A stretch of 64,000 nucleotides of DNA, from NCBI GenBank assembly GCA_903901055.1, contig CAIUPO010000107.1:12707-76706 (forward strand). Reading direction: 5' to 3'. This DNA comes from an uncultured Bacteroidota bacterium (GTDB lineage: Bacteria; Bacteroidota; Bacteroidia; JABEUT01). The notes below the pieces were generated by a model. It was not told the DNA's origin and did no database searches. It saw only the letters and a program-made list of their open reading frames with translations. Positions within the stretch are counted from its first letter, which is position 1. Every line of letters starts with the position of its first letter. Position numbers and translations under genes: made by a program. Below are positions 3,914-47,430 of the stretch, in pieces.

Positions 3914-5650
3914 ATGAAAGCTGAAAATAAATCTATTGTTTTTAAAAGGAAGTGGGGATTTATCTCTTTGTTATTTTTATTCGCATGCCAAGTATTTGCA
4001 CAAAACAAAGTCGTTAAGGGAACTCAGGACAATCATTCGCAAGTTACCGTAGGTAAACACACTATTCAAATTGTTCATGCAAACAGTGGCGAGTATGATA
4101 AACGACTTGGAGAAGGTGCACAACGACTGATTGGCAATGTAGAGCTTGCAGACGACAGTACTTCATTATTTTCCGACAGTGCATATTCTTATCCCGATAA
4201 TTCATTCAGAGCATTCGGCCATGTACACATGAGCCGCAAAGACACAATGGATCTTTATGGGGATTCATTACACTATAATGGAGTCACACGCATTGCAGAA
4301 ATTTATGGCAAAGAAATTCGTTGCCTAAGGAAGAGAATGACATTAACAACTAAACACCTTAGATACGACATTGGCGTTCACATGGTAAACTATTGGGATG
4401 GCGGAACAATTGTTGACAGCAACAATACGCTTACAAGCATGCTGGGTATTTACAATACAAAACTGAAAATGTGTTTTTTTAAGGAGCATGTTGTTCTTGT
4501 CAATCCGAAGTATGTTATCCGCTGCGATACCATGATGTATGCGCCCGACAAGCGTACTGCTTTTTTTATTGGACCTACACGCATTACAAGCAAAGACAAT
4601 TTTATGTATTGTGAAAAAGGATATTACAATACAGCTAAGAATTATTGCCAGTTCTGGCAAAATCCGTATATCAAAAATAAGAAGGGCGACAGCCTGAGAG
4701 GGGAGCAGATATATTACAACAGGAACCTGGATTACGGGCAAATACTTGATAATGTTGCACTGGTGGATACTACTGATAATATTATCCTGAAGGGTGATTA
4801 TGCTGAATACGACGGTAAGTCTGAAACTATGCTTGCAACCTGTAAAGCTTTGTTGTTGCAGGTTTACAACAAAGATACCCTGCATCTGCATGGAGATACT
4901 TTATATGGGAAAAATATTTCGATGACTGACACCAATAAGAAAGGGAAGCCGAAACTCATGCTGGCTTTTCATCATGTAAAGTTTTTCAAAAAGGATTTGC
5001 AGGGTAAATGTGATTCACTAACATACGATGAACAAGATTCTATAATGCGGATGTTTTACAATCCTATTATTTGGTCGGATGTGAACCAGCTTACGGCAGA
5101 TACAATGCGCCTGCACATGCGGAACAAAAAGATGGATGTACTCGATATGCGTAACCATTCATTTATTGCATCAAAAGATACACTGGCAGGGAAAATTGTT
5201 GAAGAGGATTCGGCAATTACTGCTTCAACTAAAAAGGATTCACTGGCAAAGGACAGTTCTAAAACCCATCATGACTCTTTGTTGGTTCATAAAAATATTC
5301 ATGGTAGCGATACTATGCAATTCAACCAAATTAAGGGCCGCAATATGAAAGGATATTTTAAAGACAATAAGATTTACAAAGTACATGTGATGGGTAATGC
5401 TCAGACTATTTACTATGTTTATTCAGATAATAACACTAGTATAATTGGCGCTAACAGAGCCGATTGCAGCAACATGATTATTTACATAGTTGACAATAAA
5501 GTTAAAAGCCTTACATTTTTAGATAAGCCCGATGCTACTTTGTTCCCTATGAAAGAGGTGAAGCAGGCGGAATTTCTGCTTGGCGGATTTCAATGGCATG
5601 GTAAGGAAAGGCCGACAACCATTGCCGATATTTTCAGAATAGACAATTAA
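3914..5650 (+). CDS. OstA-like (LptA-fold) N-terminal domain protein, secreted
   Basis: 578 aa with a signal peptide and repeated G-D-x-hydrophobic beta-strand pattern, like Bacteroidota OstA-like_N proteins. Confidence 0.45.
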   Translation: MKAENKSIVFKRKWGFISLLFLFACQVFAQNKVVKGTQDNHSQVTVGKHTIQIVHANSGEYDKRLGEGAQRLIGNVELADDSTSLFSDSAYSYPDNSFRAFGHVHMSRKDTMDLYGDSLHYNGVTRIAEIYGKEIRCLRKRMTLTTKHLRYDIGVHMVNYWDGGTIVDSNNTLTSMLGIYNTKLKMCFFKEHVVLVNPKYVIRCDTMMYAPDKRTAFFIGPTRITSKDNFMYCEKGYYNTAKNYCQFWQNPYIKNKKGDSLRGEQIYYNRNLDYGQILDNVALVDTTDNIILKGDYAEYDGKSETMLATCKALLLQVYNKDTLHLHGDTLYGKNISMTDTNKKGKPKLMLAFHHVKFFKKDLQGKCDSLTYDEQDSIMRMFYNPIIWSDVNQLTADTMRLHMRNKKMDVLDMRNHSFIASKDTLAGKIVEEDSAITASTKKDSLAKDSSKTHHDSLLVHKNIHGSDTMQFNQIKGRNMKGYFKDNKIYKVHVMGNAQTIYYVYSDNNTSIIGANRADCSNMIIYIVDNKVKSLTFLDKPDATLFPMKEVKQAEFLLGGFQWHGKERPTTIADIFRIDN

Positions 5651-6567: not shown

Positions 6568-7053
6568 ATGACTATTGAGGAATTTAATACTTGTGTAGAT
6601 ATGTATGCGGACAACCTTTATCGGTTCATCCTTAAAAACGTGAAGGATGTCGATAAGGCTAAGGATATTGTGCAGGATACGTATGAAAAGTTGTGGTTAA
6701 AAGTGAGCGATGTGCAAAGTACCAATGCAAAAAGCTACATGTTCACAACGGCCTACCGTACAATGATAGATAAATTCAGAAGTGAAAGCAAACAGGAAAG
6801 ATTGGAAGATTCGCATTTATATTCTCATAGCCATACAAGGCAGTATAGCGACCTGAAGGAAATATTGAATGAAGCGGTGAGTAAGTTGCCAGAGATACAA
6901 CGTTCTGTTATTATGTTGCGGGACTATGAAGGATATGATTACAGAGAGATTGGAGAAATAACCGGATTGCACGAATCGCAAGTGAAGGTATATATTTTCA
7001 GGGCAAGGAAATTTTTGAAAACGTACATAGGCTCAATGGAGGCTGTGGTATAA
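6568..7053 (+). CDS. ECF (sigma-70 family) RNA polymerase sigma factor
   Basis: 161 aa. Region 2 (DIVQDTYEKLW) and region 4 (YEGYDYREIGEITGLHESQVKVYIFRARKFLK) signatures. Confidence 0.8.
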   Translation: MTIEEFNTCVDMYADNLYRFILKNVKDVDKAKDIVQDTYEKLWLKVSDVQSTNAKSYMFTTAYRTMIDKFRSESKQERLEDSHLYSHSHTRQYSDLKEILNEAVSKLPEIQRSVIMLRDYEGYDYREIGEITGLHESQVKVYIFRARKFLKTYIGSMEAVV

Positions 7054-7061
7054 AAAGAAAC

Positions 7062-8141
7062 ATGAACATCAACTTAAATAACTACGAGGCATATTTTTTA
7101 GACTACCATGAAGGTAGCCTCTCTCCTGCTTTGGTAAAGGAGTTGATGGAGTTTGTAGCCCAGCATCCTGAATTGAAAGAAGAGTTGGAAAGCTTTGAAC
7201 CGATTATACTTAAAGACGCGGAAGGGATTGAATTTAATGGAAAAGAAGATCTGAAAAAAGATTTAAAAGGAATCAACGCAACCAATTTCGAGGAATCTGC
7301 AATAGATTACGTGGAAGGAAATTTAACCCCTGAACTGCAAAAAGAATTAAATACTTTCATCCTTCAAAACCCGCATTACAAAAGTGAACTGGAGTTATTT
7401 ACCAAAACGAAATTAATTGCTGATACCAATATTATTTTTGAAGATAAATTCCTTCTTAAGAAAGGCAGAAGGAAGCCTGAAGCATATTTTTATTGGTCGG
7501 CTGCGGCTTCCATTGCAATAATTATTGTTTCCTATTTTCTGCTTCATAAAAATCCAACTCCGGATGGAAATATCATTACAAAACAGAATCAGCAAAAAGA
7601 TAGTAATGTAGTTGTGAAGCATACGAATAAATTGATTGATACTGGAAATTCTACCCCGAAGGTATTACCAAATCACACTACTGATAATTCCGTGAAAGAT
7701 AATCAGGTGGCGGCCTCTAAGAATTCAGACAAGCATAAACATAGAAGTAACCCACTAAATAAAAATGGAAATTCAAGTTCGGTGGCTAGTAGAAATAGAA
7801 AGGCAAACAAACTACATAGTTTACCAGCCCCAACTCAAAAAGATATTCCTGCTGAACCGGAAAACGAACTTGTTGCTTTTAATGGAAATTTATATGACAC
7901 ATCTATGTTCATTACCAATACTCCCTCTGCAAAGGAATATATGATTATTGAGCCTGAACAAAAGGAAAAGAAGAAAAATAAATTCCTTGTAATGCTTGCC
8001 ACCATTACATGTAAAGGGCTACATACAATTACGGGGCAACATATTGAATTCGAGAAAAAATATGATTCCGACACTACCAATATTGTAGCCTACCAGCTTG
8101 ACCTTGGAAATAAAAAATATGAATTTCCGGTAAAAGAATAA
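7062..8141 (+). CDS. putative anti-sigma factor (single-pass membrane protein with internally duplicated N-terminal motif)
   Basis: The start is 9 nt after the sigma gene. The cytoplasmic N-terminus carries two copies of Y..(H/V)EG.L(S/T)P.L.KEL..F..Q.P....EL. One TM helix follows, then a low-complexity extracytoplasmic region. Confidence 0.5.
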   Translation: MNINLNNYEAYFLDYHEGSLSPALVKELMEFVAQHPELKEELESFEPIILKDAEGIEFNGKEDLKKDLKGINATNFEESAIDYVEGNLTPELQKELNTFILQNPHYKSELELFTKTKLIADTNIIFEDKFLLKKGRRKPEAYFYWSAAASIAIIIVSYFLLHKNPTPDGNIITKQNQQKDSNVVVKHTNKLIDTGNSTPKVLPNHTTDNSVKDNQVAASKNSDKHKHRSNPLNKNGNSSSVASRNRKANKLHSLPAPTQKDIPAEPENELVAFNGNLYDTSMFITNTPSAKEYMIIEPEQKEKKKNKFLVMLATITCKGLHTITGQHIEFEKKYDSDTTNIVAYQLDLGNKKYEFPVKE

Positions 8142-9572: not shown

Positions 9573-9608
9573 GGCCTGCTTACAGCAATGTTGGCAGGCT
9601 TTTTAATT
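9573..9608. terminator. putative bidirectional terminator hairpin between convergent genes
   Basis: GGCCTGC ...14 nt... GCAGGC followed by TTTTTAATT. Confidence 0.35.
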
Positions 9609-10299
9609 AAGGTTTCTTTGCAATAATACCATCACCTTCAACAGTATAATATTCTGTGTGGAGGCTGTTACGCAGTGAAATATACTCGCGGTAAAGAGCG
9701 TTATAAGCAATACGCGCGTCCAATGTTTCATCATATCGTCCGGTAAGGCCAATGAGCATTTCCATTATTTCCCTCAGTGCATGATTGCTGCTATCGCAAG
9801 CCGTGAGATAATCCATTAATTGACGGTCTTCTGCATACTTTATCACCAATGGATTTGCAGGCCGTGAAATCATCATCCTCACTCCAACTTTTGCCGCAAC
9901 ATCTAAATCTAAAATATCGTCAAAAACAAAAAGTACTTCATCGGGTTGAAGGCTGTATTTCTTACATACATGCTCAAGAGCAGTGCTTTTATGTTTGATT
10001 TTATAATATACAAAATCCATGTGTTCCCTGTCGGAAAACGAGTGTGATGCGGAATTCCTTTCTCCGGTAATAATTCCGAAAATAGGCATCGAGCCCTTAC
10101 GCTGGTAGTGATTGAAGCGGAGCATATTTATGCCCATGGCATCAATCTCATTAAAGAGGCTGGTGTTGCGTTCGTCTTTTTGGCCGTTATTAAAAACTCC
10201 ATCCCAGTCGAAAATATAGGCTTTTACTTTGTCGAGTTTAGCCAGTATCTTCGCGGGCGGGATAAGGAATTTTCCTTTAAATAATTTTTCTATTTCCAT
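9607..10299 (-). CDS. HAD-superfamily phosphatase, KdsC (Kdo-8-phosphate phosphatase)-like
   Basis: DWDGV motif I and FDDILD motif of YrbI/KdsC-type HAD enzymes, with extra terminal extensions. It overlaps the upstream KdsD-like gene by one codon. Confidence 0.55.
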   Translation of the reverse strand: MEIEKLFKGKFLIPPAKILAKLDKVKAYIFDWDGVFNNGQKDERNTSLFNEIDAMGINMLRFNHYQRKGSMPIFGIITGERNSASHSFSDREHMDFVYYKIKHKSTALEHVCKKYSLQPDEVLFVFDDILDLDVAAKVGVRMMISRPANPLVIKYAEDRQLMDYLTACDSSNHALREIMEMLIGLTGRYDETLDARIAYNALYREYISLRNSLHTEYYTVEGDGIIAKKP

Positions 10300-11312
10300 T
10301 AGTCGTTTTTCAGGTCTTGTATATCCAACATACCAATAGGCTTGCCTCCATCAGTAACCATAATAGTATCTACATTTGATTTTTTGAATAAAGCAGCAGC
10401 CTCATTCAAAATAACGTTGGCATCAATACTTATAGGTGCTTTATATTCCAGTTCTTTCAGCTTTTTATTGAGGATGCTTTCTCCATCTTTTTGCAAATGC
10501 CTGCGTAAATCACCATCGGTAAATACTCCCATTACGCTGCCATCACCTTTGGTTACAATAACCGTACCGAAACCATATTCGGTCATTTTAACAATGGCAT
10601 CTTTAACGGTTGTTTCGCTGCTGACAATGGGATTGCCGGGGCGGATTGCTTCTTTCACCTTCACCATCATCATGCGTGTATCGCGGAAAAACTGCTCGGT
10701 TCCAACTTGAGTAAAATTATTTTCGGTGAGTGATTTCAATACTTTTAACGGAACTGTTATGGTATGCACTCCAATATTAATAGCATTGCGCACGTGTTCA
10801 TTATGGCGTACAGAGCTGAACATAATTTTGGTATCGTAATTGTAATAGTTAACCGCATCTACGCATTGTTCAATCAACGTGAGTGCATCATGCCCCTGGT
10901 CCTGCAAACGGCCAACCAACGGACAAACATAAGTTGCACCTGCATGCATTGCCATATAAGCTTGTTGCAGGGTGTATACCAAATGGACATTAACTAACAA
11001 GCCATCGTTGCGCAAAATCTTACATGCACGAACTCCTTCAAGTGATACCGGTATTTTGAAAACCGTTTTCTTTGGGTCCAGTCCTAACTCAAGCTGGCGG
11101 TAGGCTTCCCGTTTAATTTCATCGGCATTGGAACCAAGGGCTTCAATTTGAAGGACCGGCACTATTTTGCTAAGTTTTACAATAGTTCCGTCAATATCAG
11201 TAATACCTTCCTTTTGCATAAAGGTAGGCGTTGTAGTAAGGCCATCGAGGAATCCAAGTTTGAATCCTTCTTCAATTTCCTTCATGTTTGCAGAATCGAG
11301 ATATAGCTCCAT
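10299..11312 (-). CDS. fusion protein: fructose-6-phosphate aldolase/transaldolase (TalC/FSA) domain plus KdsD-type tandem CBS domains
   Basis: N-terminal MELYLDSANMKEIEE...GLTTTPTF, FKIPVS (catalytic Lys region) and YVCPLVGRLQDQG match FSA/TalC. C-terminal GVFTDGDLRR...IGMLDIQDL closely matches the CBS pair of E. coli KdsD (GIFTDGDLRR). Confidence 0.7.
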   Translation of the reverse strand: MELYLDSANMKEIEEGFKLGFLDGLTTTPTFMQKEGITDIDGTIVKLSKIVPVLQIEALGSNADEIKREAYRQLELGLDPKKTVFKIPVSLEGVRACKILRNDGLLVNVHLVYTLQQAYMAMHAGATYVCPLVGRLQDQGHDALTLIEQCVDAVNYYNYDTKIMFSSVRHNEHVRNAINIGVHTITVPLKVLKSLTENNFTQVGTEQFFRDTRMMMVKVKEAIRPGNPIVSSETTVKDAIVKMTEYGFGTVIVTKGDGSVMGVFTDGDLRRHLQKDGESILNKKLKELEYKAPISIDANVILNEAAALFKKSNVDTIMVTDGGKPIGMLDIQDLKND

Positions 11313-11533
11313 AGTGTTAGTTATTTGAGGTGGTAAAGGTAAGAAACCCTATGAAATGTAAAGCTGGTCTCAACTGGAAATAATGTTAAGCGTGAATGGT
11401 GTAAGTTTTCCATAAAGATATGTAACACTTAACGCGCCAAACGGGCTCACCTTTGTGCTATCTAAATCTAATCACAAGTAGTAAAAACAAAGGGAGAAGG
11501 AGTAAGACAAACCCTCTCTATAAACTAACTAAT

Positions 11534-11839
11534 ATGAACGAAAATCAAAAAAGCGAAGATGTTACAAAAACACCGAGCGAAAAAAATAACCCGGGAAATT
11601 CACAACCGAGCAGTTCAACTTCTCAAACTACATCTGTACCCGTTGAAGATGACGAAAAGCGGGAAGGGGATGAATTTATAAGGGAAGGCCACGGGCATGA
11701 TTATGGCACTCCGGTAGCCGGAGAAGATGGTGGAACTGAAGACCAGTCTTCAAATGAACCTAAAAATGAAAGTGAGGAAACAAATAGCAGCAAACCAACA
11801 GAACAAGGAAAAACGCAGGGTGAAAGTTCAACTATCTAA
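11534..11839 (+). CDS. small highly hydrophilic intrinsically disordered protein (copy 1), EGHGHDYGTPVA motif
   Basis: 101 aa rich in S/T/N/Q/E/K with no hydrophobic segment. It ends in STI. Likely start is 11534, parallel to copy 2, rather than the ORF-track start at 11453. Confidence 0.5.
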   Translation: MNENQKSEDVTKTPSEKNNPGNSQPSSSTSQTTSVPVEDDEKREGDEFIREGHGHDYGTPVAGEDGGTEDQSSNEPKNESEETNSSKPTEQGKTQGESSTI

Positions 11840-12337: not shown

Positions 12338-12640
12338 ATGAAAGAAAATCAAAAGAACGAACAGGTTTCAAATAACCCAAGTAACTCAAAAAGCCAAACC
12401 AGCCAAAATGGTCAGAGCAATTCTCAAAAGAACAGTTCCGGTTCATCTTCTGAAAAGAAAAATATGCCCCTAACTGCCGAAAAGGAAATTAAAGAAAAGG
12501 GTCATGAGCATGATTACAAAACACCAGTAGCAAGTTCGAACGGCAAAGTTGGAACCCAAACTGAAAAATCAAAAATGCCGGCGGAAAAAAGCCAAGGTTC
12601 AAGCCAGGGAAATACCAAGAATGAAAAATCAACTATCTAA
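12338..12640 (+). CDS. small hydrophilic intrinsically disordered protein (copy 2), KGHEHDYKTPVA motif
   Basis: 100 aa. Paralog of 11534..11839: same composition, the GH.HDY.TPVA motif and a C-terminal KSTI. Confidence 0.5.
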   Translation: MKENQKNEQVSNNPSNSKSQTSQNGQSNSQKNSSGSSSEKKNMPLTAEKEIKEKGHEHDYKTPVASSNGKVGTQTEKSKMPAEKSQGSSQGNTKNEKSTI

Positions 12641-12946: not shown

Positions 12947-13309
12947 TTAAGCTATTATTGCCAATAGAATTGATAATAATACATAAAAGATTACGCAAAT
13001 AATCCCAATAATCTTATGTGTTTTAGTTTCGTTAATATATTTCAATTCAATAGTCTTGAATCTCTTTTTATATAAAAAATAGAACAAATTGAACCCAACA
13101 GCAGTGGAAAATGTACTAATCATAACTGTTAGTGATTTCCTGTAATCTGGAACAACAAAAATTCCAGTAAAAATCCAATAAACATTAGAAGCATTAAACA
13201 TTAAAGGAGTTCCATATAAGATACATGCATACCAAGCACTTTCATCTTCTTCATAAGACAGGTGCATTTGTTTGTACAACCGATAAAATGTATATTCGTA
13301 AGGATTCAT
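12947..13309 (-). CDS. hypothetical membrane protein
   Basis: 120 aa with several hydrophobic helices. No recognisable motif. Confidence 0.3.
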   Translation of the reverse strand: MNPYEYTFYRLYKQMHLSYEEDESAWYACILYGTPLMFNASNVYWIFTGIFVVPDYRKSLTVMISTFSTAVGFNLFYFLYKKRFKTIELKYINETKTHKIIGIICVIFYVLLSILLAIIA

Positions 13310-13324
13310 TAATTTGGTAAGCGC

Positions 13325-14161
13325 TTACCTCCCCCTATACTTCACCTCCGTATTATGTATCTCAATCAAGGGTTCTAAAAAAGCTTTCAGGTCATAAACA
13401 GATAGCTGGCTCGATGCATCGCACAAAGCTTTGGAGGGTTCGGGATGGGTTTCAATAAAAATGCCATCTACTCCTGAGGCCACGCCGGCGCGGCTTATAA
13501 CGGGCAGGAATTCTCTTGCTCCGCCTTTTGCATCGGCGCTGGGTATGCCATATTTGCGAATGGAGTGGGTAATATCAAACACTACCGGGTAGCCAATTTG
13601 GTTCAAATGGTAAAGGCTTCGAGGGTCAACTACTAAATCATTATATCCAAAAGTGTATCCTCTTTCTGTTAGGATGATGTTATCATTTCCGCTATCCACA
13701 CATTTTTTAACGGGGTGCTTCATATTTTCAGGTGCAAGGAATTGTCCGTGTTTAATATTAATAACACGCCCTGTTTTTGCCGCGGCAACCATCAAGCTGC
13801 TTTGCATGCATAGGTATGCAGGTATTTGCAATACATCACAAACTTCGGCTGCAGGTGCCGCCTGGTCAGGGTAATGAATATCCGTTAGAATTGAGAAACC
13901 GAATTCCTTTTTTACTTTAGCAAGCATTGCCAAGCCTTTTTCAAGTCCCGGTCCATCGTAATATTTCAGATCGCTGCGGTTATCTTTCAAAAACGAGGAC
14001 TTATATATGATAGGGATATTTAATTGTTCGCTTACTTCTTTCAGTTTTTCAGCGGTCCTGAACATGATGGATTCTTCTTCAATAACACAAGGGCCCGATA
14101 TTAGGAATAACTGGTCTGCGCCACATTCAATATTTCCGACTTTTATTTTCTTTTTGCTCAT
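13325..14161 (-). CDS. kdsA: 3-deoxy-8-phosphooctulonate (Kdo-8-P) synthase
   Basis: 278 aa. DAHC/KDO8P synthase family hallmarks (...GPCVIEEE..., KSSFLKDNRSDL, HSIRKYG). Confidence 0.85.
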   Translation of the reverse strand: MSKKKIKVGNIECGADQLFLISGPCVIEEESIMFRTAEKLKEVSEQLNIPIIYKSSFLKDNRSDLKYYDGPGLEKGLAMLAKVKKEFGFSILTDIHYPDQAAPAAEVCDVLQIPAYLCMQSSLMVAAAKTGRVINIKHGQFLAPENMKHPVKKCVDSGNDNIILTERGYTFGYNDLVVDPRSLYHLNQIGYPVVFDITHSIRKYGIPSADAKGGAREFLPVISRAGVASGVDGIFIETHPEPSKALCDASSQLSVYDLKAFLEPLIEIHNTEVKYRGR

Positions 14162-14356: not shown

Positions 14357-14929
14357 TTGGAAGTAGACATACAGGAATTAAAAGCCGGAAATGAGCAGGC
14401 CTTTCGTTTGCTTATTGACGCGTACGGAAAGGCTATTTTCAATCTTTGCCTGGGCATGATTCCTAACAGGGATGATGCCGAGGAACTAACGCAGGACGTA
14501 TTTATTGAAGCTTATAAGCACATTGCTTCTTTCCGAGAGGGTTCCCATATAAAGACCTGGCTCTTCCGCATTGCCTTAAACAAATGCTACGACCACATAA
14601 AATTTAGTAAGCGGAAAAAGAGGTATGGTATTATGCAACCCTTATTAGATAAGGACGATAACCCGATAGAATTACCTTCCAATTTTCAGCATCCGGGCAT
14701 AACCCTTGAAAACAAAGACCATGCCAAAGCACTATATGGTGCCCTGAACGCTTTGCCCGAAAACCAGCACACGGCTTTTACTATGTATGAAATGCAGGGA
14801 ATGGATTATAAACAAATTGCAGATACTATGTCTGTAAGTGTTTCTGCTGTTGAGTCTTTACTATCCCGTGCAAGGGCAGGTTTACGTAAAAAGCTACAGG
14901 ATTACTATACACATAACGCAAGTTCTTAA
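14357..14929 (+). CDS. ECF sigma factor
   Basis: 190 aa. Sigma-70 r2 (ELTQDVFIEAYK) and r4 (MQGMDYKQIADTMSVSVSAVESLLSRAR). Confidence 0.8.
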   Translation: MEVDIQELKAGNEQAFRLLIDAYGKAIFNLCLGMIPNRDDAEELTQDVFIEAYKHIASFREGSHIKTWLFRIALNKCYDHIKFSKRKKRYGIMQPLLDKDDNPIELPSNFQHPGITLENKDHAKALYGALNALPENQHTAFTMYEMQGMDYKQIADTMSVSVSAVESLLSRARAGLRKKLQDYYTHNASS

Positions 14930-14955
14930 ATAATCAATCGTCTAAATAATCGAAT

Positions 14956-15312
14956 ATGGACAGGAAACAGGATATAGAAGACAATATAAATGCGGCTTTG
15001 CAGGCTGCAGGCAAAATTCAACCTTCGGAATTGCCTAATGGTTTTTCTGAGCGGGTTGCAAACAAGTTACATGCTCAAAATAAGGTAAGGATGCTATATA
15101 ACATAGCGCCCCTTTTGCGTGTGGCTGCGGTATTTGTTCTAATCATTATTAATGTTTTCACCTTGCGCCTTTTTACCGAAGGGCAACCAAAACAAGCAAC
15201 AGCCCAATACGTTACTATAAAAGATTTTGTGAATGAATACCAGATTAATGATGGCAGTGAAGATTTGTTAACTACTAATACATCACCTTATGAACAGCCC
15301 AAAACTCACTAA
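14956..15312 (+). CDS. putative anti-sigma factor / membrane protein
   Basis: 118 aa with one TM helix. It lies directly downstream of the ECF sigma gene. Confidence 0.4.
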   Translation: MDRKQDIEDNINAALQAAGKIQPSELPNGFSERVANKLHAQNKVRMLYNIAPLLRVAAVFVLIIINVFTLRLFTEGQPKQATAQYVTIKDFVNEYQINDGSEDLLTTNTSPYEQPKTH

Positions 15313-41157: not shown

Positions 41158-44100
41158 ATGAAAAAACTATTCCTCCTTATCGCATTTCTGCTTTCAATTT
41201 TCAACTTTCAATTTTCAACATCTCTTTCAGCGCAAGATGATCCTTTCTATAAAGAAGATTGGAAGAAAGTGGAAGCATATACTAAGAAAAACCTGATGCG
41301 CTCTGCCATTGCCAAAACCGATAGTATTTACCGGAAAGCAAGAAAAGCAAATAACACAGCAGAGGTTGTGAAATCTATCATTTTCCGGATGAATTATGAG
41401 TATGGTGTAGATGATTCTGCTACCGAAAAATGGATTTATAAATTGAAAGGAGACATAAAAGCAGCACACTGTCCCGAGAAGCAATTACTCTCCTCGCTGC
41501 TCGCCGAAATGTATTGGAGCTATTATGAAAAAAACCGTTACCGTTTTTATTACCGCACGGAAACAATCAACTTTAAGGATGACGATATAAGTACATGGGA
41601 TATTACAAAAATTGTAAAAGAAGCTTTGGCCTGTTATAAGGCTTCGCTTGAAAATTCTGATAGTTTGAAAATGATTGACATTGATAAATTTGATGTGATA
41701 TTAAATAAAGGAAACGCCACAGAACTGCGCCCTAAACTGTATGATTTTCTTGCCCATCGCGCCCTAACATTTTATGAAAGCAGCGAACCGGAAATAAGCA
41801 GACCTGCTGTTCAATTTAGTTTGAATGATGCAATATATTTAACGGATTATACTAAATTAACTAAATTAACAATAACAACAGATGACTCACTCTCGCTGAA
41901 ATTTTATGCTTTGCAAACCTTGCAACAATTATTAGCTTTCCATTCTACAAATAATGCTAAGGATATTGCCCCGCTTATTGATGTGGATCTGGAACGCCTT
42001 CATTTCGTCCTGCAGCAGGCTGCCAATATGGAAAACAAAGACAGCTCATTCGTAAGTGCCTTACGAAACCTGAGAGATAGATTTAAGTCAGACCCGGCAT
42101 CTACCGAAGTAGATTATCAACTGGCTATGTTTTATTATTCGAATGCTACTTATAAGCCGGCAACGCCTGACAATACAAGGTGGTTCAGGAAAAAAGCTTT
42201 AATAATTTGTGAAGCCTCCGTAAAGCGTTTTCCTGAATCGTATGGTGCTGAAATGTGTAAGGATCTTGAAGTCTCTATAAAGCAAAAATCTACTTCTTTT
42301 TCTCTTCCTCAAGTTAATATTCCAGGGAAACCATTTCCTCTTGTGCTCCAGTTTCAGAATATGGACAAGGCTTACATCCGGATAATAAAAGTAAGTCCGG
42401 AAAAGTATGAGGAGGAATATGGTTATGAATACTATAACAAGCTTCCTAAGGAGTGGTCAACTATTGTTCCTGTCAAGGAATGGACAGTTGATTTACCAAA
42501 GGAAACCGATTACCAAACGCATTCAACAGAAGTGGAGATGCCAGCACTTGCACCGGGGTTTTATATGGTGCTCGTTTCACCGAACAATAAGTTTACATGT
42601 AACAAAAACCTGGTGGCTTACAAAGGTTGCTGGTCAAGTAATTTAAGTTATGTTGTGCGTACACAAAATGACGGCACAAAAGAATTTACTGTGCTTGACA
42701 GAACTACCGGAGTGTCTTTGAAGGGAGTACATGCACAGGTTTTGTATAATAGCGAATATGATTATTCTACACGTCATTACAAATCAACAAAAGGGCCTTT
42801 GCTTATTACAGATGCAGACGGACATTGCATATTGCATCCGCGCAAAGACCACTATGACAATATGAAACTTGACGTTACCAATGGCAAAGACCGCTTTCTG
42901 GATTTTGAGTCGACATACATGTATGATTATAGCTATAACGCCAAGAAAGAATGGCGTCCTGTTTCCTGTTTCTTTACTGACAGGGCTATTTACCGCCCCG
43001 GGCAGACGGTTTATTTCAAAGGTATTTTATTAAAAACAGATGGAGATAAAAGTTATCTTGACTCAAATACGGCTACCGAAGTTGTCTTATATGATGTGAA
43101 TTATCAGAAGGTGACAAGCCTAAATTTGGTTTCAGATGCGTATGGTTCGGTTAGCGGAACATTCGTGCTTCCTATGGGATTGTTGAATGGTACCATGCGA
43201 ATTTATGACGGGCGGGGAACAAAATATATACAGGTGGAAGATTACAAACGCCCGAAATTTTATGTGAGTTTAGATACGGTGAAAGGCAATTTCAGGTTAG
43301 GTGAAACGGTTAACATTACTGGCACTGCAAAGGGATACAATGGTGCAAGTATTGATGGTGCAACTGTAAAATACCGTGTTGAACGGAGAGAAAATATTCC
43401 ATGGTGGTACAGTTTTTACTGGGGACGATATAATTCCTCGGGCTCAACTCCAACAGAAATTACAAATGGAACAATTACCTCCAACGACACAGGTGGAATA
43501 GCATTTAATTTTAAGGCGCTGCCTGATATAAATGAATCGAAAATATATAACCCATCATTTGTATTTACAATTTATGTTGATGTAACCGATGCTAATGGCG
43601 AAACACACAGCACACAAACCGATGTACAGGTTGGATATACTGCCATTTCGCTGGATGTTCAGCTTCCGCAAAGGCTTGATAAAACCGGAACTGATACTTT
43701 CAAAATTGAAACAACAAATATGCAGGGGAGTAAAGTTTTTGCTTCTGGAAATATTGTAATCTATAGGTTACAGGAGCCCAAAACCATTTATCGTAGCCGT
43801 CTTTGGAGTATGCCTGATACATTTATTTACAATAAGCAGCAATGGGATACAGCTTTTCCCGGCGACGCTTACCGGAATGAAGATGAAGTTATAAATTATC
43901 CCAAAGGAGAAAAAGTGCTGGAGCAAAGTTTCAATACCGGAGATAAGAGGATGTTTATTATTCCTTCTGTTTCGGGCTGGCAGCAAGGAACCTATGTAAT
44001 GGAAGCTCATACAAAAGATGCCTACGGACAGGATGTAAGAGACTTGAAATATTTTACAGTTTATTCTCCTGTAGATAAAAATATCCCTACAAATACACCG

Positions 44101-47100
44101 GACGATTTCAGTGTAATTAAGAACTATTGCGAGCCCGGAGAAAAGGCAAAATTCCTGATTGGTTCAGCGTATGATAATGTGACCGTGATGTATGAAATAG
44201 AAAAGAAAAATAAGATTGTTCATCACGAATGGCTTACCTTAAACCATGAACAACGTATGATTGAAATACCTGTCGAAGACAGCGACCGGGGCGGATTCGG
44301 AGTGCATTTTGTATTTGTGAAAAACAATCGCGTATATACCCACGATGGTAATGTGAATGTAAGCTGGGCCAATAAAAACCTGACATTGAAATTTGAATCA
44401 TTCCGCAATAAATTATTGCCAGGGCAAAAAGAAGAATGGAAAATAAAAGTGAAAGACTACAAAGGGCAAAAAGCGAATGCACAAATGATGGCGACCTTGT
44501 ATGACGCTTCATTGGATGAGTTTGCAACAAATGGCTGGTCGTTGGATATATATCCCTATTATGGGGCAAGTTTATACTGGTCGGACCCCCGTATTTTCGG
44601 TTCATTTGATGCATGGGCATGTGCTGACGATTGGTACAGCTATAGTAAGCGAACATTTTATCGTTCTTATGATCAATTAATTTCCGCCGGATATTATTAT
44701 ACAGCATACACCAATGCTTATACCTGGTCATGGGATTACGGCGGGAGCGCAGGATACAGGGAAAGGATGGTTACAAGAGGGGGCTCATACAAGTCATTAG
44801 AATTGCAAGATGAAGTTGTAAACGCAAAAATGGACAATAAGATTGCAGCAGGCAATATTACTACGATTGCTACCGGAAGTACAACTGCAGCAGCTACCCC
44901 TGCAGCGCAGAGTCAACCTGATGAAGCCCGATATTTAATAGTTAAAGGAGAGAAAAAATCAGGAGGTAAGCATGAGGATTTCAGGGGGGGCGATGGTGAA
45001 GATGATAAAGATGTTGAAGGAGGAAAAGAAGGCAAGGATCTTTCTAATGTTGCAGCCCGTGCGAATTTTAATGAGACTGCATTTTTCTATCCAACATTGA
45101 ATACCGATGACAGTGGAAATGTGGTGATTCAATTTACTGTGCCGGAGGCTACAACCAAATGGAAAATGATGGGTATGGCACATTCAAAAGATTTGAAAAT
45201 CGGGTATATTCAAAATCAACTTATTACGCAAAAAGATTTAATGGTTACTCCAAATGCTCCACGTTTTTTACGGGAAAGTGATACTATTAACTTTACATCC
45301 AAAATAACAGATTTAGCTGATAAAGATTTAACAGGAGCTGTGCAATTATATCTGTATGATGCACTTGATATGTCCCAAATGGATCCCTCGGGAAAAGATA
45401 TCACAACTCAATTTTTATCAAAGCAGACGCAGCAAACGTTCTCTGTAAAGAAAGGCCAGAGCACTGTTGTTACATGGCAATTGATTATTCCAAAAGGCGT
45501 TGATGCTGTCACATATAAAGTAGTTGCACAAGCCGGAAATTATAGTGACGGAGAACAAAATACTTTGCCAATACTCACCAACAGTATGCTCGTTACTGAA
45601 TCCATTCCGCTATCAGTAAGAGGAAAACAAAAACGCACTTTCACATTTAATAAATTGCTCAATCAGAACAATCATTCCACTACGTTGAGAAATCAGAAAG
45701 TGACGTTGGAATTTACGGCTAATCCGGCATGGTATGCTATACAGGCATTGCCTTATATTATGGAGTATCCATATGAATGTGCCGAGCAAACTTTCGACCG
45801 TTTTTATGCTAACAGTATTGCTTCGAACATTGCAAATTCATCACCGAAAATAAAAGCAGTTTTCGAAAGTTGGAAGAACCGTTCACCTGATGCATTTTTA
45901 TCGAACCTTGAAAAAAATCAGGAGTTGAAATCGCTTATGCTGGAAGAAACTCCTTGGGTGCTTGAAGCAAAAGATGAATCGGAAAGGAAGAAAAGAGTGG
46001 GCTTGTTATTCGACCTGAATAAAATGAGCAATGAATTAGCCGCTGCACTTAATAAGTTAGAAAAGAAACAACTCTATAACGGAGGCTGGTCGTGGTTTCC
46101 GGGTATGCCTGCTGACAGATATATGACGCAATATACCATCACAGGTTTTGGTCATTTGGATCATCTTGGAATAAAAAATGTACGGGGTGATAACCGGGTT
46201 TGGAACATGGTTTATAAAGGAGTTCAATTTATGGATGAGCGGATTAAAGATGATTACAACTGGATATTAAAATACGATCCGAAAAATGTTGATAAGAACC
46301 ATCTGGATTATGAAGCGATACAGTATCTCTACACCAGAAGCTATTTCAAAGACATTCCTGTAAGTTCCTCTAACCAGGCAGCATTTGATTATTATAAAGG
46401 ACAGGCACAAAAGTACTGGGCCAAGGAAAATAGTAATTACATGGAAGGCATGATTGCACTTGCGTTATGCCGTTATGGGGATAAGAAAACAGCATCAGAT
46501 ATTATGGCTTCATTAAAAGAAAATGCTACTAACCGCGAAGAGATGGGAATGTATTGGGCAGGCGACGAAGAAGGATATAACTGGTACAACTCAAACATAG
46601 AAGAACACGCTTTAATGATTGAAGCATTCGATGAAGTTAGTAACGACCAAAAATCAGTTGAGGCATTGAAAGTATGGTTGCTGCGTAGCAAGCAAACACA
46701 GGATTGGGGAACTACTAAAGCTACCGCTGAGGCTTGCTATTCCTTGCTGTTGAAGGGTAGTGATATTTTGGCAAGGGAGCCACGCATCGATATTAACGTT
46801 GGAGATAAAAAAATAAAACTGGCTCCTTCGGGAGATTCTGTTGAGCATGGAGAAGCAGGCACAGGCTACTTCAAAACATCATGGACAGGCAGCGACATAA
46901 AACCTGAAATGGGAAATATTACAGTCTCGAAAAGTGATTCAGGATTGAGTTATGGGGCAGTGTACTGGCAGTATTTTGAGCAGTTGGATAAAATTACTCC
47001 GCATAAAACTCCGTTGAGTATTGATAAGAAATTGTTTGTGGAAAGAGTAACTCCATCAGGATTAGTAATGGAACCAATCACATCATCCACACATTTGAAA

Positions 47101-47430
47101 GTGGGTGATAAAGTGAAAGTGCGGATAGAATTGCGTGTTGACCGCGACATGGATTATGTGCAGATGAAAGACATGCGGGGCTCGTGCATGGAGCCAATTG
47201 ATGTAATCTCCGATTACAGATACCAGGATGGATTAGGCTATTACCAAAGCACCCGCGATGCCGCGACTAACTTCTTCTTCGACCATGTACATAAAGGCAC
47301 TTATGTTTTTGAATATGCTATGTTTGTTACCAATAAAGGCAATTTCTCCAACGGAATTACAACCATACAATGTATGTATGCACCGGAATACAATAGCCAT
47401 TCGGAGGGAGTGAGGGTTAAAGTCGAGTAA
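41158..47430 (+). CDS. alpha-2-macroglobulin family protein (bacterial A2M-like, large)
   Basis: 2090 aa with a signal peptide and a long array of beta-sandwich-like segments. EYPYECAEQTFDRF resembles the thioester motif C-x-E-Q followed by the A2M receptor-binding-type C-terminus. Confidence 0.7.
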   Translation: MKKLFLLIAFLLSIFNFQFSTSLSAQDDPFYKEDWKKVEAYTKKNLMRSAIAKTDSIYRKARKANNTAEVVKSIIFRMNYEYGVDDSATEKWIYKLKGDIKAAHCPEKQLLSSLLAEMYWSYYEKNRYRFYYRTETINFKDDDISTWDITKIVKEALACYKASLENSDSLKMIDIDKFDVILNKGNATELRPKLYDFLAHRALTFYESSEPEISRPAVQFSLNDAIYLTDYTKLTKLTITTDDSLSLKFYALQTLQQLLAFHSTNNAKDIAPLIDVDLERLHFVLQQAANMENKDSSFVSALRNLRDRFKSDPASTEVDYQLAMFYYSNATYKPATPDNTRWFRKKALIICEASVKRFPESYGAEMCKDLEVSIKQKSTSFSLPQVNIPGKPFPLVLQFQNMDKAYIRIIKVSPEKYEEEYGYEYYNKLPKEWSTIVPVKEWTVDLPKETDYQTHSTEVEMPALAPGFYMVLVSPNNKFTCNKNLVAYKGCWSSNLSYVVRTQNDGTKEFTVLDRTTGVSLKGVHAQVLYNSEYDYSTRHYKSTKGPLLITDADGHCILHPRKDHYDNMKLDVTNGKDRFLDFESTYMYDYSYNAKKEWRPVSCFFTDRAIYRPGQTVYFKGILLKTDGDKSYLDSNTATEVVLYDVNYQKVTSLNLVSDAYGSVSGTFVLPMGLLNGTMRIYDGRGTKYIQVEDYKRPKFYVSLDTVKGNFRLGETVNITGTAKGYNGASIDGATVKYRVERRENIPWWYSFYWGRYNSSGSTPTEITNGTITSNDTGGIAFNFKALPDINESKIYNPSFVFTIYVDVTDANGETHSTQTDVQVGYTAISLDVQLPQRLDKTGTDTFKIETTNMQGSKVFASGNIVIYRLQEPKTIYRSRLWSMPDTFIYNKQQWDTAFPGDAYRNEDEVINYPKGEKVLEQSFNTGDKRMFIIPSVSGWQQGTYVMEAHTKDAYGQDVRDLKYFTVYSPVDKNIPTNTPDDFSVIKNYCEPGEKAKFLIGSAYDNVTVMYEIEKKNKIVHHEWLTLNHEQRMIEIPVEDSDRGGFGVHFVFVKNNRVYTHDGNVNVSWANKNLTLKFESFRNKLLPGQKEEWKIKVKDYKGQKANAQMMATLYDASLDEFATNGWSLDIYPYYGASLYWSDPRIFGSFDAWACADDWYSYSKRTFYRSYDQLISAGYYYTAYTNAYTWSWDYGGSAGYRERMVTRGGSYKSLELQDEVVNAKMDNKIAAGNITTIATGSTTAAATPAAQSQPDEARYLIVKGEKKSGGKHEDFRGGDGEDDKDVEGGKEGKDLSNVAARANFNETAFFYPTLNTDDSGNVVIQFTVPEATTKWKMMGMAHSKDLKIGYIQNQLITQKDLMVTPNAPRFLRESDTINFTSKITDLADKDLTGAVQLYLYDALDMSQMDPSGKDITTQFLSKQTQQTFSVKKGQSTVVTWQLIIPKGVDAVTYKVVAQAGNYSDGEQNTLPILTNSMLVTESIPLSVRGKQKRTFTFNKLLNQNNHSTTLRNQKVTLEFTANPAWYAIQALPYIMEYPYECAEQTFDRFYANSIASNIANSSPKIKAVFESWKNRSPDAFLSNLEKNQELKSLMLEETPWVLEAKDESERKKRVGLLFDLNKMSNELAAALNKLEKKQLYNGGWSWFPGMPADRYMTQYTITGFGHLDHLGIKNVRGDNRVWNMVYKGVQFMDERIKDDYNWILKYDPKNVDKNHLDYEAIQYLYTRSYFKDIPVSSSNQAAFDYYKGQAQKYWAKENSNYMEGMIALALCRYGDKKTASDIMASLKENATNREEMGMYWAGDEEGYNWYNSNIEEHALMIEAFDEVSNDQKSVEALKVWLLRSKQTQDWGTTKATAEACYSLLLKGSDILAREPRIDINVGDKKIKLAPSGDSVEHGEAGTGYFKTSWTGSDIKPEMGNITVSKSDSGLSYGAVYWQYFEQLDKITPHKTPLSIDKKLFVERVTPSGLVMEPITSSTHLKVGDKVKVRIELRVDRDMDYVQMKDMRGSCMEPIDVISDYRYQDGLGYYQSTRDAATNFFFDHVHKGTYVFEYAMFVTNKGNFSNGITTIQCMYAPEYNSHSEGVRVKVE

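Follow-up and report, generated by a model that had tools for sequence, protein, structure and literature searches.

A kdsD-like gene of Bacteroidota with a transaldolase-fold barrel in place of the SIS domain: a predicted aldolase route to arabinose-5-phosphate

The sugar Kdo (3-deoxy-D-manno-octulosonate) is essential for the lipopolysaccharide (LPS) of almost all diderm bacteria, and the four steps of its synthesis (KdsD, KdsA, KdsC and KdsB) are regarded as universal and as a target for antibiotics. The DNA analysed here, called the window, is a stretch of 64,000 nucleotides from an uncultured Bacteroidota bacterium (contig CAIUPO010000107.1, positions 12,707 to 76,706). It contains a gene that ends like kdsD but begins with a barrel of the transaldolase/fructose-6-phosphate aldolase (Tal/FSA) superfamily, and the question is how arabinose-5-phosphate (A5P) is supplied at such a locus. 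The findings are best read as a case in which a non-orthologous enzyme has taken the place of arabinose-5-phosphate isomerase. With slightly better than even confidence, we regard the gene as a kdsD in which the SIS domain was replaced in situ by a class-I aldolase barrel of a distinct subfamily, termed HCL below, that would supply A5P to 3-deoxy-8-phosphooctulonate (KDO8P) synthase.

Two open reading frames (ORFs), one for the fusion and one for a phosphatase behind it, had been described in an earlier note on this DNA and were present with the motifs quoted there (Table 1). That note had proposed an exchange of the SIS domain for a Tal/FSA barrel beside a KdsD-type CBS pair, and the domain search bore this out; no SIS domain was found in the fusion. 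Pfam TAL_FSA (PF00923) matched residues 3-202 (E 6e-33, 114.8 bits with a cutoff of 27), and the NCBIfam model fsa_talC_mipB (TIGR00875) was aligned with positions 1-212 of 213 on residues 1-212 (E 2e-49). The top-scoring CBS family for the C-terminal part was TIGR00393 (KpsF/GutQ), whose positions 151-267 fell on residues 213-329 with 63 bits; KdsD (PRK10892) and then GutQ were the next best NCBIfam families. The NCBIfam KdsD/KpsF matches were confined to this part of the protein, and PDB entry 4o9k, the CBS domain of an arabinose-5-phosphate isomerase, was found with E 3e-14. The CBS pair is thus KdsD-like in type and in its key motif, which reads GVFTDGDLRR in the fusion. The similarity did not extend to the whole pair, for near-identity to residues 200-322 of E. 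coli KdsD was seen only at G[VI]FTDGDLRR and the overall identity was 25%.

The AlphaFold (AF2) model of the fusion had a pLDDT of 84 overall and of about 90 over the barrel. When the barrel model was compared with the Thermoplasma acidophilum transaldolase TacTal (3s0c) in Foldseek, the root-mean-square deviation was 1.7 Å over 198 amino acids with a TMt of 0.81-0.88; judged from this model, the barrel fold is intact. None of the solved structures in the Foldseek comparison spanned the barrel and the CBS pair together. No match to residues 1-200 of E. coli KdsD, i.e. to the SIS domain, was detected in the fusion or in the 64-kb window, and neither a second transaldolase nor kdsB was found in the window. 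The database names for the fusion are "transaldolase family protein", "TalC/MipB family fructose-6-phosphate aldolase" and "CBS domain-containing protein".

Table 1. Positions of the fusion gene, its domains and other features of the window, and of two fusion genes from the sub-clade with a lost active site
Feature	Position	Strand	Remarks
Tal/FSA-CBS fusion ORF	10299..11312	-	337 aa, N-terminus MELYLDSAN
N-terminal Tal/FSA-fold TIM barrel, residues 1-212	10677..11312	-	PF00923, TIGR00875, PDB 1vpx E 8.6e-39
C-terminal KdsD-type CBS pair, residues 213-337	10302..10676	-	Pfam 2x CBS, TIGR00393, PDB 4o9k
Fusion stop codon	10299-10301	-	
Divergent YrbI/KdsC-family HAD phosphatase	9607..10299	-	230 aa; KdsC PRK09484
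kdsA, KDO8P synthase	13325..14161	-	NF003543, TIGR01362
Predicted membrane protein, immediately downstream of kdsA	12947-13309	-	120 aa; no Pfam match
Insert ORFs, low-complexity, Ser/Thr/Asn/Gln/Glu-rich	11453-11839; 12338-12640	+ (opposite strand)	no Pfam match
OstA/LptD_N-like protein, close to the Kdo genes	3914-5650	+	578 aa
Two ECF (extracytoplasmic function) sigma factor genes, either side of the locus	6568-8141; 14357-15312	+	each with a possible anti-sigma ORF behind it
Bacterial alpha-2-macroglobulin	41158-47430	+	2090 aa
Fusion gene of the lost-active-site sub-clade, Bacteroidia chromosome OZ257142.1	L041:10001-11008		
Fusion gene of the lost-active-site sub-clade (P0125)	L086:1434-2438		

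The active site was derived from an alignment of the fusion with solved transaldolases, FsaA and representatives of a 1.8-billion-protein library. Its signature is Asp6, Thr28, Glu57, Lys86, Asn108, His110, Cys130, Leu132, Gly134, Arg135, Ser166 and Arg169. His110, Cys130 and Leu132 stand where the canonical short transaldolases carry Thr, Ser and Phe, and position 28 (TacTal numbering), which is Asn in the canonical enzymes, is Thr in the fusion and often Thr across its relatives. Lys86 in the FKIP motif and Asp6 align with Lys86 and Asp6 of TacTal and with Lys85 and Asp6 of FsaA. The FsaA residues Gln59, Leu107, Ala129, Tyr131 and Asn133 correspond to Glu57, Asn108, Cys130, Leu132 and Gly134 in the fusion. 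The barrel also scored below all curated Tal/FSA cutoffs, with 167.7 bits against the equivalog cutoff of 245.95 for TIGR00875 and, for example, 62 against 282 bits for the Tal model TIGR02134. The assignment of the N-terminal half to the FSA/TalC type in the earlier note was hence right for the superfamily, as seen with PF00923 and TIGR00875, but not for the type, given the replacement of Gln59, Tyr131, Ala129 and Leu107 and the score for TIGR00875. By its sequence, the barrel belongs to the Tal/FSA superfamily but falls outside both the canonical transaldolases and the FSA enzymes; both ordinary readings were rejected on the active-site residues and the curated score cutoffs.

The residues at 110, 130 and 132 define a subfamily, HCL (His/Cys/Leu), which derives from the short transaldolases but on this signature is distinct from them. 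Among the best 150 representatives, 12 clusters were fused HCL proteins, about 21 were unfused HCL barrels and 60 were Thr/Ser/Phe transaldolases. All members linked to kdsA, at 29-95% identity, share the catalytic set D-[NT]-E-K-[NS]-H-C-L-G-R-[SA]-R. Asp6, Glu57 and Lys86 were intact in every scorable metagenome sequence of the scan described below, although they were absent from the search pattern. The alignment shows transaldolase features in the Schiff-base lysine, in the acid/base residues and at the phosphate site (Arg135/Ser166/Arg169). From the TalB and TacTal structures we take the replaced positions to surround the donor C1 hydroxymethyl group and the catalytic water, the altered residues corresponding to Ser130/Ser176, which binds the donor C1-OH, and its neighbours. 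A5P is fructose-6-phosphate minus the C1 hydroxymethyl group. The replacement of the C1-side residues thus fits a substrate without C1, and a remodelled C1 side of the fructose-6-phosphate-binding site is what would be expected of an enzyme acting on the C2-C3 bond of A5P.

One sub-clade of fusions (P0125, P0126, P0134, P0150 and L041), nested beside the clade of the window, has lost Lys86, Asp6, His110 and Arg135 in intact ORFs. Asp6 is changed to Glu and Lys86 to Arg or Ser, and His110 and Arg135 are gone. The KdsD-type CBS pair of these proteins is intact and their Kdo neighbours are lost; one of the genes comes after a Peptidase_M61 gene. The proteins may be pseudoenzymes or regulators, and the pattern is compatible with decay or with a new role after the function was no longer needed. 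In a neighbour-joining tree of the CBS pairs, the KdsD and the fusion sequences were separated by one clean split, with the deep branches unresolved. Multiple independent fusions were also considered; the tree is instead consistent with a single origin of the fusion, for which we make no strong claim.

The gene linkage was followed in a genome scan with a narrow alignment, one genome per species, and 10 kb on either side of the matches were inspected. The scan returned 28 full-length, intact fusion loci. The hosts belong to several orders of the Bacteroidota, among them the isolates Plebeiibacterium marinum, Marinilabiliaceae JC017 and Chryseolinea sp. T2, and further to the Gammaproteobacteria (Woeseiaceae, Rariloculaceae), with one metagenome-assembled genome (MAG) each of the Gemmatimonadota and the Desulfobacterales. 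The immediate upstream neighbour of the fusion on the same strand is kdsA in 25 of the 28 loci, with a median gap of about 16 nt, and the gaps between the genes at these loci range from -4 to tens of nt. The long subtype of KdsC-like HAD protein that the window encodes follows the fusion in 17 loci, at a distance of no more than 76 nt in 14 of these. The genes of KdsB and of the Kdo transferase WaaA occur close by in 7 and 9 loci, respectively. The CBS-only matches of the same scan gave 46 loci with a canonical SIS-CBS kdsD in other phyla, where the order is kdsB-kdsA-kdsD-kdsC-(lptC-lptA)-lptB. Since both the fusion and the canonical kdsD lie between kdsA and kdsC, the fusion occupies the kdsD slot. 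No SIS domain was found within 10 kb on either side of any of the 28 fusion loci.

KdsA and the HAD protein of fusion loci from different phyla are far more alike mutually than they are to their counterparts at canonical loci. For the fusion-linked HAD subtype, the E values were 1e-50 to 1e-70 within the subtype and 1e-5 to 1e-15 to canonical KdsC. This suggests that the three genes, kdsA, fusion and HAD, form a module that moves as a whole. The HAD subtype, of about 225-245 amino acids with a C-terminal extension of about 40, travels with the fusion across phyla (L005-L030). A block of waaA, kdsA, fusion and HAD gene was observed in Gammaproteobacteria (L023-L028), in the Gemmatimonadota MAG (L013) and in the Desulfobacterales MAG (L014), with 49-64% identity to the Bacteroidota genes. 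The KdsA of these blocks is much nearer to the KdsA of the window than to that of loci with a canonical kdsD. The comparison suggests that the whole module was horizontally transferred, with mis-binning of MAGs possible for some loci.

The distant fused members (35-39% identity) lie in glycan clusters, next to KDO8P synthases and KdsB-like cytidylyltransferases, and the synthases exceed the KDO8P-synthase equivalog cutoff with 297-346 bits. Among the unfused HCL genes, three (P0136, P0173 and P0179) overlap kdsA and one (P0158) is followed by a KdsB-like gene. The metagenomes of JGI were then scanned with a degenerate DNA pattern, validated on known loci, that matches the HCL motifs but leaves out the abundant clade of the window. 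It returned 80 HCL loci, 36 fused and 44 unfused, none of them with a SIS domain. KdsA was encoded in 63 of the 80 and a KdsB-like protein in 36. Where both flanks extended over 900 nt or more, kdsA was present in 33 of 34 loci, in 25 of these within 300 nt on the same strand. Two canonical Thr/Ser/Phe transaldolases taken as controls had no Kdo neighbours. As the unfused barrels are also linked to kdsA, the linkage belongs to the barrel and not to the CBS pair. Taken together, the genome and metagenome counts give the role in the Kdo pathway that the earlier note had proposed far better support than was available to that note.

The recurrent neighbours of the metagenome loci were only kdsA and kdsB-like genes; the rest were varied glycan-tailoring enzymes. 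No glycolaldehyde-producing partner was conserved beside the fusion and HCL genes in the genome and metagenome loci. The lack of a partner beyond kdsA and kdsB in most loci suggests that the substrates are ubiquitous metabolites. Two candidates for a universal partner were rejected. The iron-type alcohol dehydrogenase, considered as a glycolaldehyde source, is paired with a DegT aminotransferase and is a better fit to KdnB/KdnA, and a 2-hydroxyacid dehydrogenase is present in only about 10 of the 80 loci. The latter, a D-2-hydroxyacid dehydrogenase similar to phosphoglycerate dehydrogenase, stands beside unfused HCL barrels (L085:1139-2134, L157:5761-6708 and about 10 metagenome loci), in divergent glycan clusters with radical-SAM/SPASM enzymes, short-chain dehydrogenases/reductases and methyltransferases.

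At the locus of the window, kdsA starts 2012 nt upstream of the fusion on the same strand, in agreement with the distance of about 2 kb given before, and its product exceeds the equivalog cutoffs (346.5 against 242 bits for NF003543; 332.6 against 314 bits for TIGR01362). The fusion and the phosphatase gene are translationally coupled; the stop codon of the one and the start codon of the other overlap by one nucleotide (TAATG), and not by one codon as had been stated. The description of the phosphatase as KdsC-like held for its best matches, with the best PDB matches all being KdsC (2p9j, 2r8e), but the protein is divergent. It matched the KdsC model PRK09484 with E 3e-14 and 53 bits against a cutoff of 208, and TIGR01670 with 39.5 bits against 106.95, and so falls below the curated KdsC scores. 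Its HAD motifs I-IV (DWDGV, ITGE, HK and FDDILD) align with DVDGV, ITGR, NK and GDDLID of E. coli KdsC, and it has the capless C0 architecture like YrbI.

What the sequences show is the domain architecture, the signature of the active site and the linkage of the genes. From these we infer a role in A5P supply, an aldolase reaction and a regulatory function of the CBS pair, which was probably retained as a module of the ancestral KdsD. In the proposed mechanism, a glycolaldehyde unit of two carbons would be bound to Lys86 as a Schiff base. With the retained Asp6/Glu57 and phosphate site (Arg135, Ser166 and Arg169), this unit would be linked to D-glyceraldehyde-3-phosphate, and the new bond would be C2-C3 of A5P. 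The source of the unit could be free glycolaldehyde, like in the side reaction of FsaA, or the unit could be taken in the manner of a transaldolase from an aldose phosphate such as ribose-5-phosphate, with a net conversion of ribose-5-phosphate to A5P and no free glycolaldehyde. KdsA would then form Kdo8P, the coupled KdsC-like phosphatase would dephosphorylate it, and KdsB and WaaA would use the Kdo. FsaA is the one enzyme documented to make A5P from glycolaldehyde and glyceraldehyde-3-phosphate, solely in a side reaction that is used in synthetic pathways, and the F178Y mutant of TalB makes both A5P and ribose-5-phosphate (PMC9947464). Transaldolase folds can thus handle both C2 epimers, which makes the transaldolase-like route from ribose-5-phosphate to A5P conceivable. 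Such a route would agree with the lack of a conserved glycolaldehyde partner, and with a barrel that has kept the Glu of transaldolases instead of having the Tyr of FSA. More widely, and with a little less than even confidence, HCL aldolases may be the natural A5P-forming enzymes that replace KdsD in many Bacteroidota, some Gammaproteobacteria, Gemmatimonadota and others, using a two-carbon unit and glyceraldehyde-3-phosphate or possibly acting as a "retro-aldol epimerase" on ribose-5-phosphate.

Several points weigh against the replacement of KdsD by an aldolase. The HCL members are known as sequences, and the SIS negatives cover the loci and the window; a canonical kdsD, also one of the SIS-only form, might lie elsewhere in the fusion-bearing genomes. 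Free glycolaldehyde is not abundant among metabolites and no source of it is linked to the gene. The barrel is without the catalytic Tyr of FSA and keeps the transaldolase Glu, so that it need not behave as an FSA-like lyase. Accessory glycan clusters hold many of the unfused members, and the product there might be a Kdo variant. The sub-clade with the lost active site shows that the scaffold can persist without catalysis as intact ORFs, though without Kdo neighbours.

Four other explanations were weighed. The barrel might supply A5P without forming a C-C bond, as a pentose-phosphate isomerase or 2-epimerase with His110 and Glu57 as acid/base and an overall reaction equal or parallel to that of KdsD, either from ribulose-5-phosphate via an enediol or from ribose-5-phosphate via an aldimine/enamine at C1. 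A domain swap in situ would survive most easily with the same ubiquitous substrate pool, no additional partner gene is conserved, His110 is the most striking subfamily-specific change, and aldose-ketose isomerases typically use His and Glu for catalysis. We nevertheless consider this unlikely. The transaldolase set for C-C cleavage, Asp6, Glu57, Lys86 and Asn108, is strictly conserved, and by chemical reasoning a lysine Schiff base with a ketose would end in a dead-end adduct of the Heyns type and not in a free aldose. To our knowledge, no isomerase is known in the Tal/FSA fold. Still somewhat less likely is a regulated but otherwise ordinary transaldolase or fructose-6-phosphate aldolase of the pentose phosphate pathway, co-transcribed with the Kdo genes just to balance the pentose-phosphate supply, with A5P made by a canonical SIS isomerase encoded elsewhere in the genome, beyond the loci searched. 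Such an enzyme would hardly be expected to show the subfamily-wide changes of Thr110 to His, Ser130 to Cys, Phe132 to Leu and often Asn28 to Thr, a score below every curated Tal/FSA cutoff, or a KdsD CBS pair kept in the operon slot of KdsD. The linkage to kdsA is near-universal for HCL and absent in the Thr/Ser/Phe controls. The database name "transaldolase family protein" and the 35-37% identity to the nearest solved relatives, which are genuine transaldolases, speak for it, and a transaldolase beside a canonical kdsD in Myxococcota (see below) shows that proximity is possible without replacement.

The surroundings of the divergent and unfused members point in another direction. Many of them lie among radical-SAM/SPASM enzymes, methyltransferases and epimerase/dehydratases, with 2-hydroxyacid dehydrogenases, aminotransferases, Wzy and glycosyltransferases in the same clusters, and Chitinophagaceae-type loci carry a KdnA/KdnB-like DegT aminotransferase and iron-type alcohol dehydrogenase. 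The barrel could then make another aldose phosphate or edit an intermediate, leading to a Kdo variant for a specialised glycan. This is improbable, as the partner synthases score as KDO8P-synthase equivalogs, and loci of the window type have the housekeeping neighbours waaA, kdsB and the KdsC-like gene and a kdsA that appears to be the sole one of the locus; the tailoring enzymes plausibly act downstream of Kdo formation. Least of all do we expect the barrel to be a non-catalytic sensor of sugar phosphates in a protein that regulates or scaffolds the Kdo pathway, a very improbable case. CBS pairs are typical ligand-sensing modules and the sub-clade with the destroyed active site persists at full length, but that sub-clade is without Kdo neighbours, every kdsA-linked member, over 29-95% identity, has kept all 12 positions of the active site, and the unfused barrels without CBS domains are equally linked to kdsA. 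In conclusion, the replacement of the SIS domain by an aldolase barrel for A5P supply is the reading that we favour.

In the literature searched, no description was found of the fusion, of the HCL subfamily or of a natural aldolase route to A5P. Fold and pathway are known; the subfamily is new and the pathway step is a predicted new one. If the prediction is true, the first step of Kdo synthesis has been non-orthologously replaced and the picture of a universal pathway would have to be revised. It would explain why kdsD appears to be missing in genome-scale models of Bacteroidota and correct thousands of "transaldolase" annotations. It would also add a natural reaction to the Tal/FSA fold; biocatalysis makes heavy use of this fold, and so do synthetic pathways for glycolaldehyde assimilation, which currently depend on the weak side activity of FsaA. 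The fusion would then be a clean case of a catalytic domain swapped in situ with the regulatory module kept.

Further observations were made around these loci. The window has a 2-kb insert between kdsA and the fusion, which abut in its relatives, and the two opposite-strand ORFs of the insert have a GH(G/E)HDY(G/K)TPVA motif in common; the gene of the predicted membrane protein of 120 amino acids lies in the insert as well. Sorting domains of the type IX secretion system are also encoded in the window, in keeping with its origin from Bacteroidota. Genes for a DegT aminotransferase and for an iron-type alcohol dehydrogenase are repeatedly found just upstream of kdsA (L003:7263-8354, L004:6723-7955 and about 10 other Chitinophagaceae-type loci). 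The pair, which the window does not have, resembles KdnA/KdnB, the enzymes that convert Kdo to 8-amino-Kdo (Kdo8N) in Shewanella, and by this analogy suggests an LPS of the Kdo8N type in the Bacteroidota that carry it. In four Myxococcota genomes (L031-L034, e.g. Myxococcus qinghaiensis L033:8795-10789), a Thr/Ser/Phe transaldolase of 216 amino acids divergently adjoins a SIS-CBS kdsD. A neighbourhood of this type could have given rise to the Tal-CBS fusion, or it is a coincidence.

Among known systems, KdsD/KpsF/GutQ have the CBS pair type, the G[VI]FTDGDLRR motif and the slot between kdsA and kdsC in common with the fusion. They carry a SIS catalytic domain and isomerise via an enediol, whereas the fusion has an unrelated fold for which a covalent Schiff base is expected. 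A SIS-only form of the A5P isomerase occurs in Bacteroides fragilis, and the fused and SIS-only forms of KdsD parallel the fused and unfused HCL barrels; the HCL barrels in capsule-like clusters parallel KpsF. KdsC/YrbI has about 180 amino acids, and the phosphatase of the window is longer by a C-terminal extension of about 40 residues. E. coli FsaA/FsaB (TalC/MipB) has the fold and the Schiff-base chemistry of the fusion at about 24% identity but neither a CBS pair nor a link to Kdo genes. The short, decameric transaldolases of about 215 amino acids, TM0295 of Thermotoga maritima (1VPX), Bacillus subtilis Tal (3R8R) and TacTal (3S0C), share the fold at 35-37% identity and have Lys86, Asp6, Glu, Asn108 and Arg135/Ser166/Arg169 in common with the fusion. 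They carry Thr110/Ser130/Phe132, where the fusion, which is linked to kdsA and not to genes of the pentose phosphate pathway, has His/Cys/Leu in addition to its CBS pair. The sulfofructose transaldolase SF-TAL (8BC3/8C4I) was among the structural and sequence matches of the fusion with 25-28% identity. It belongs to a different subfamily, is catabolic on a C6 sulfosugar and has no CBS pair or Kdo context. SF-TAL is a further example of a short-transaldolase barrel co-opted for a new substrate in a new pathway (PMC7491151).

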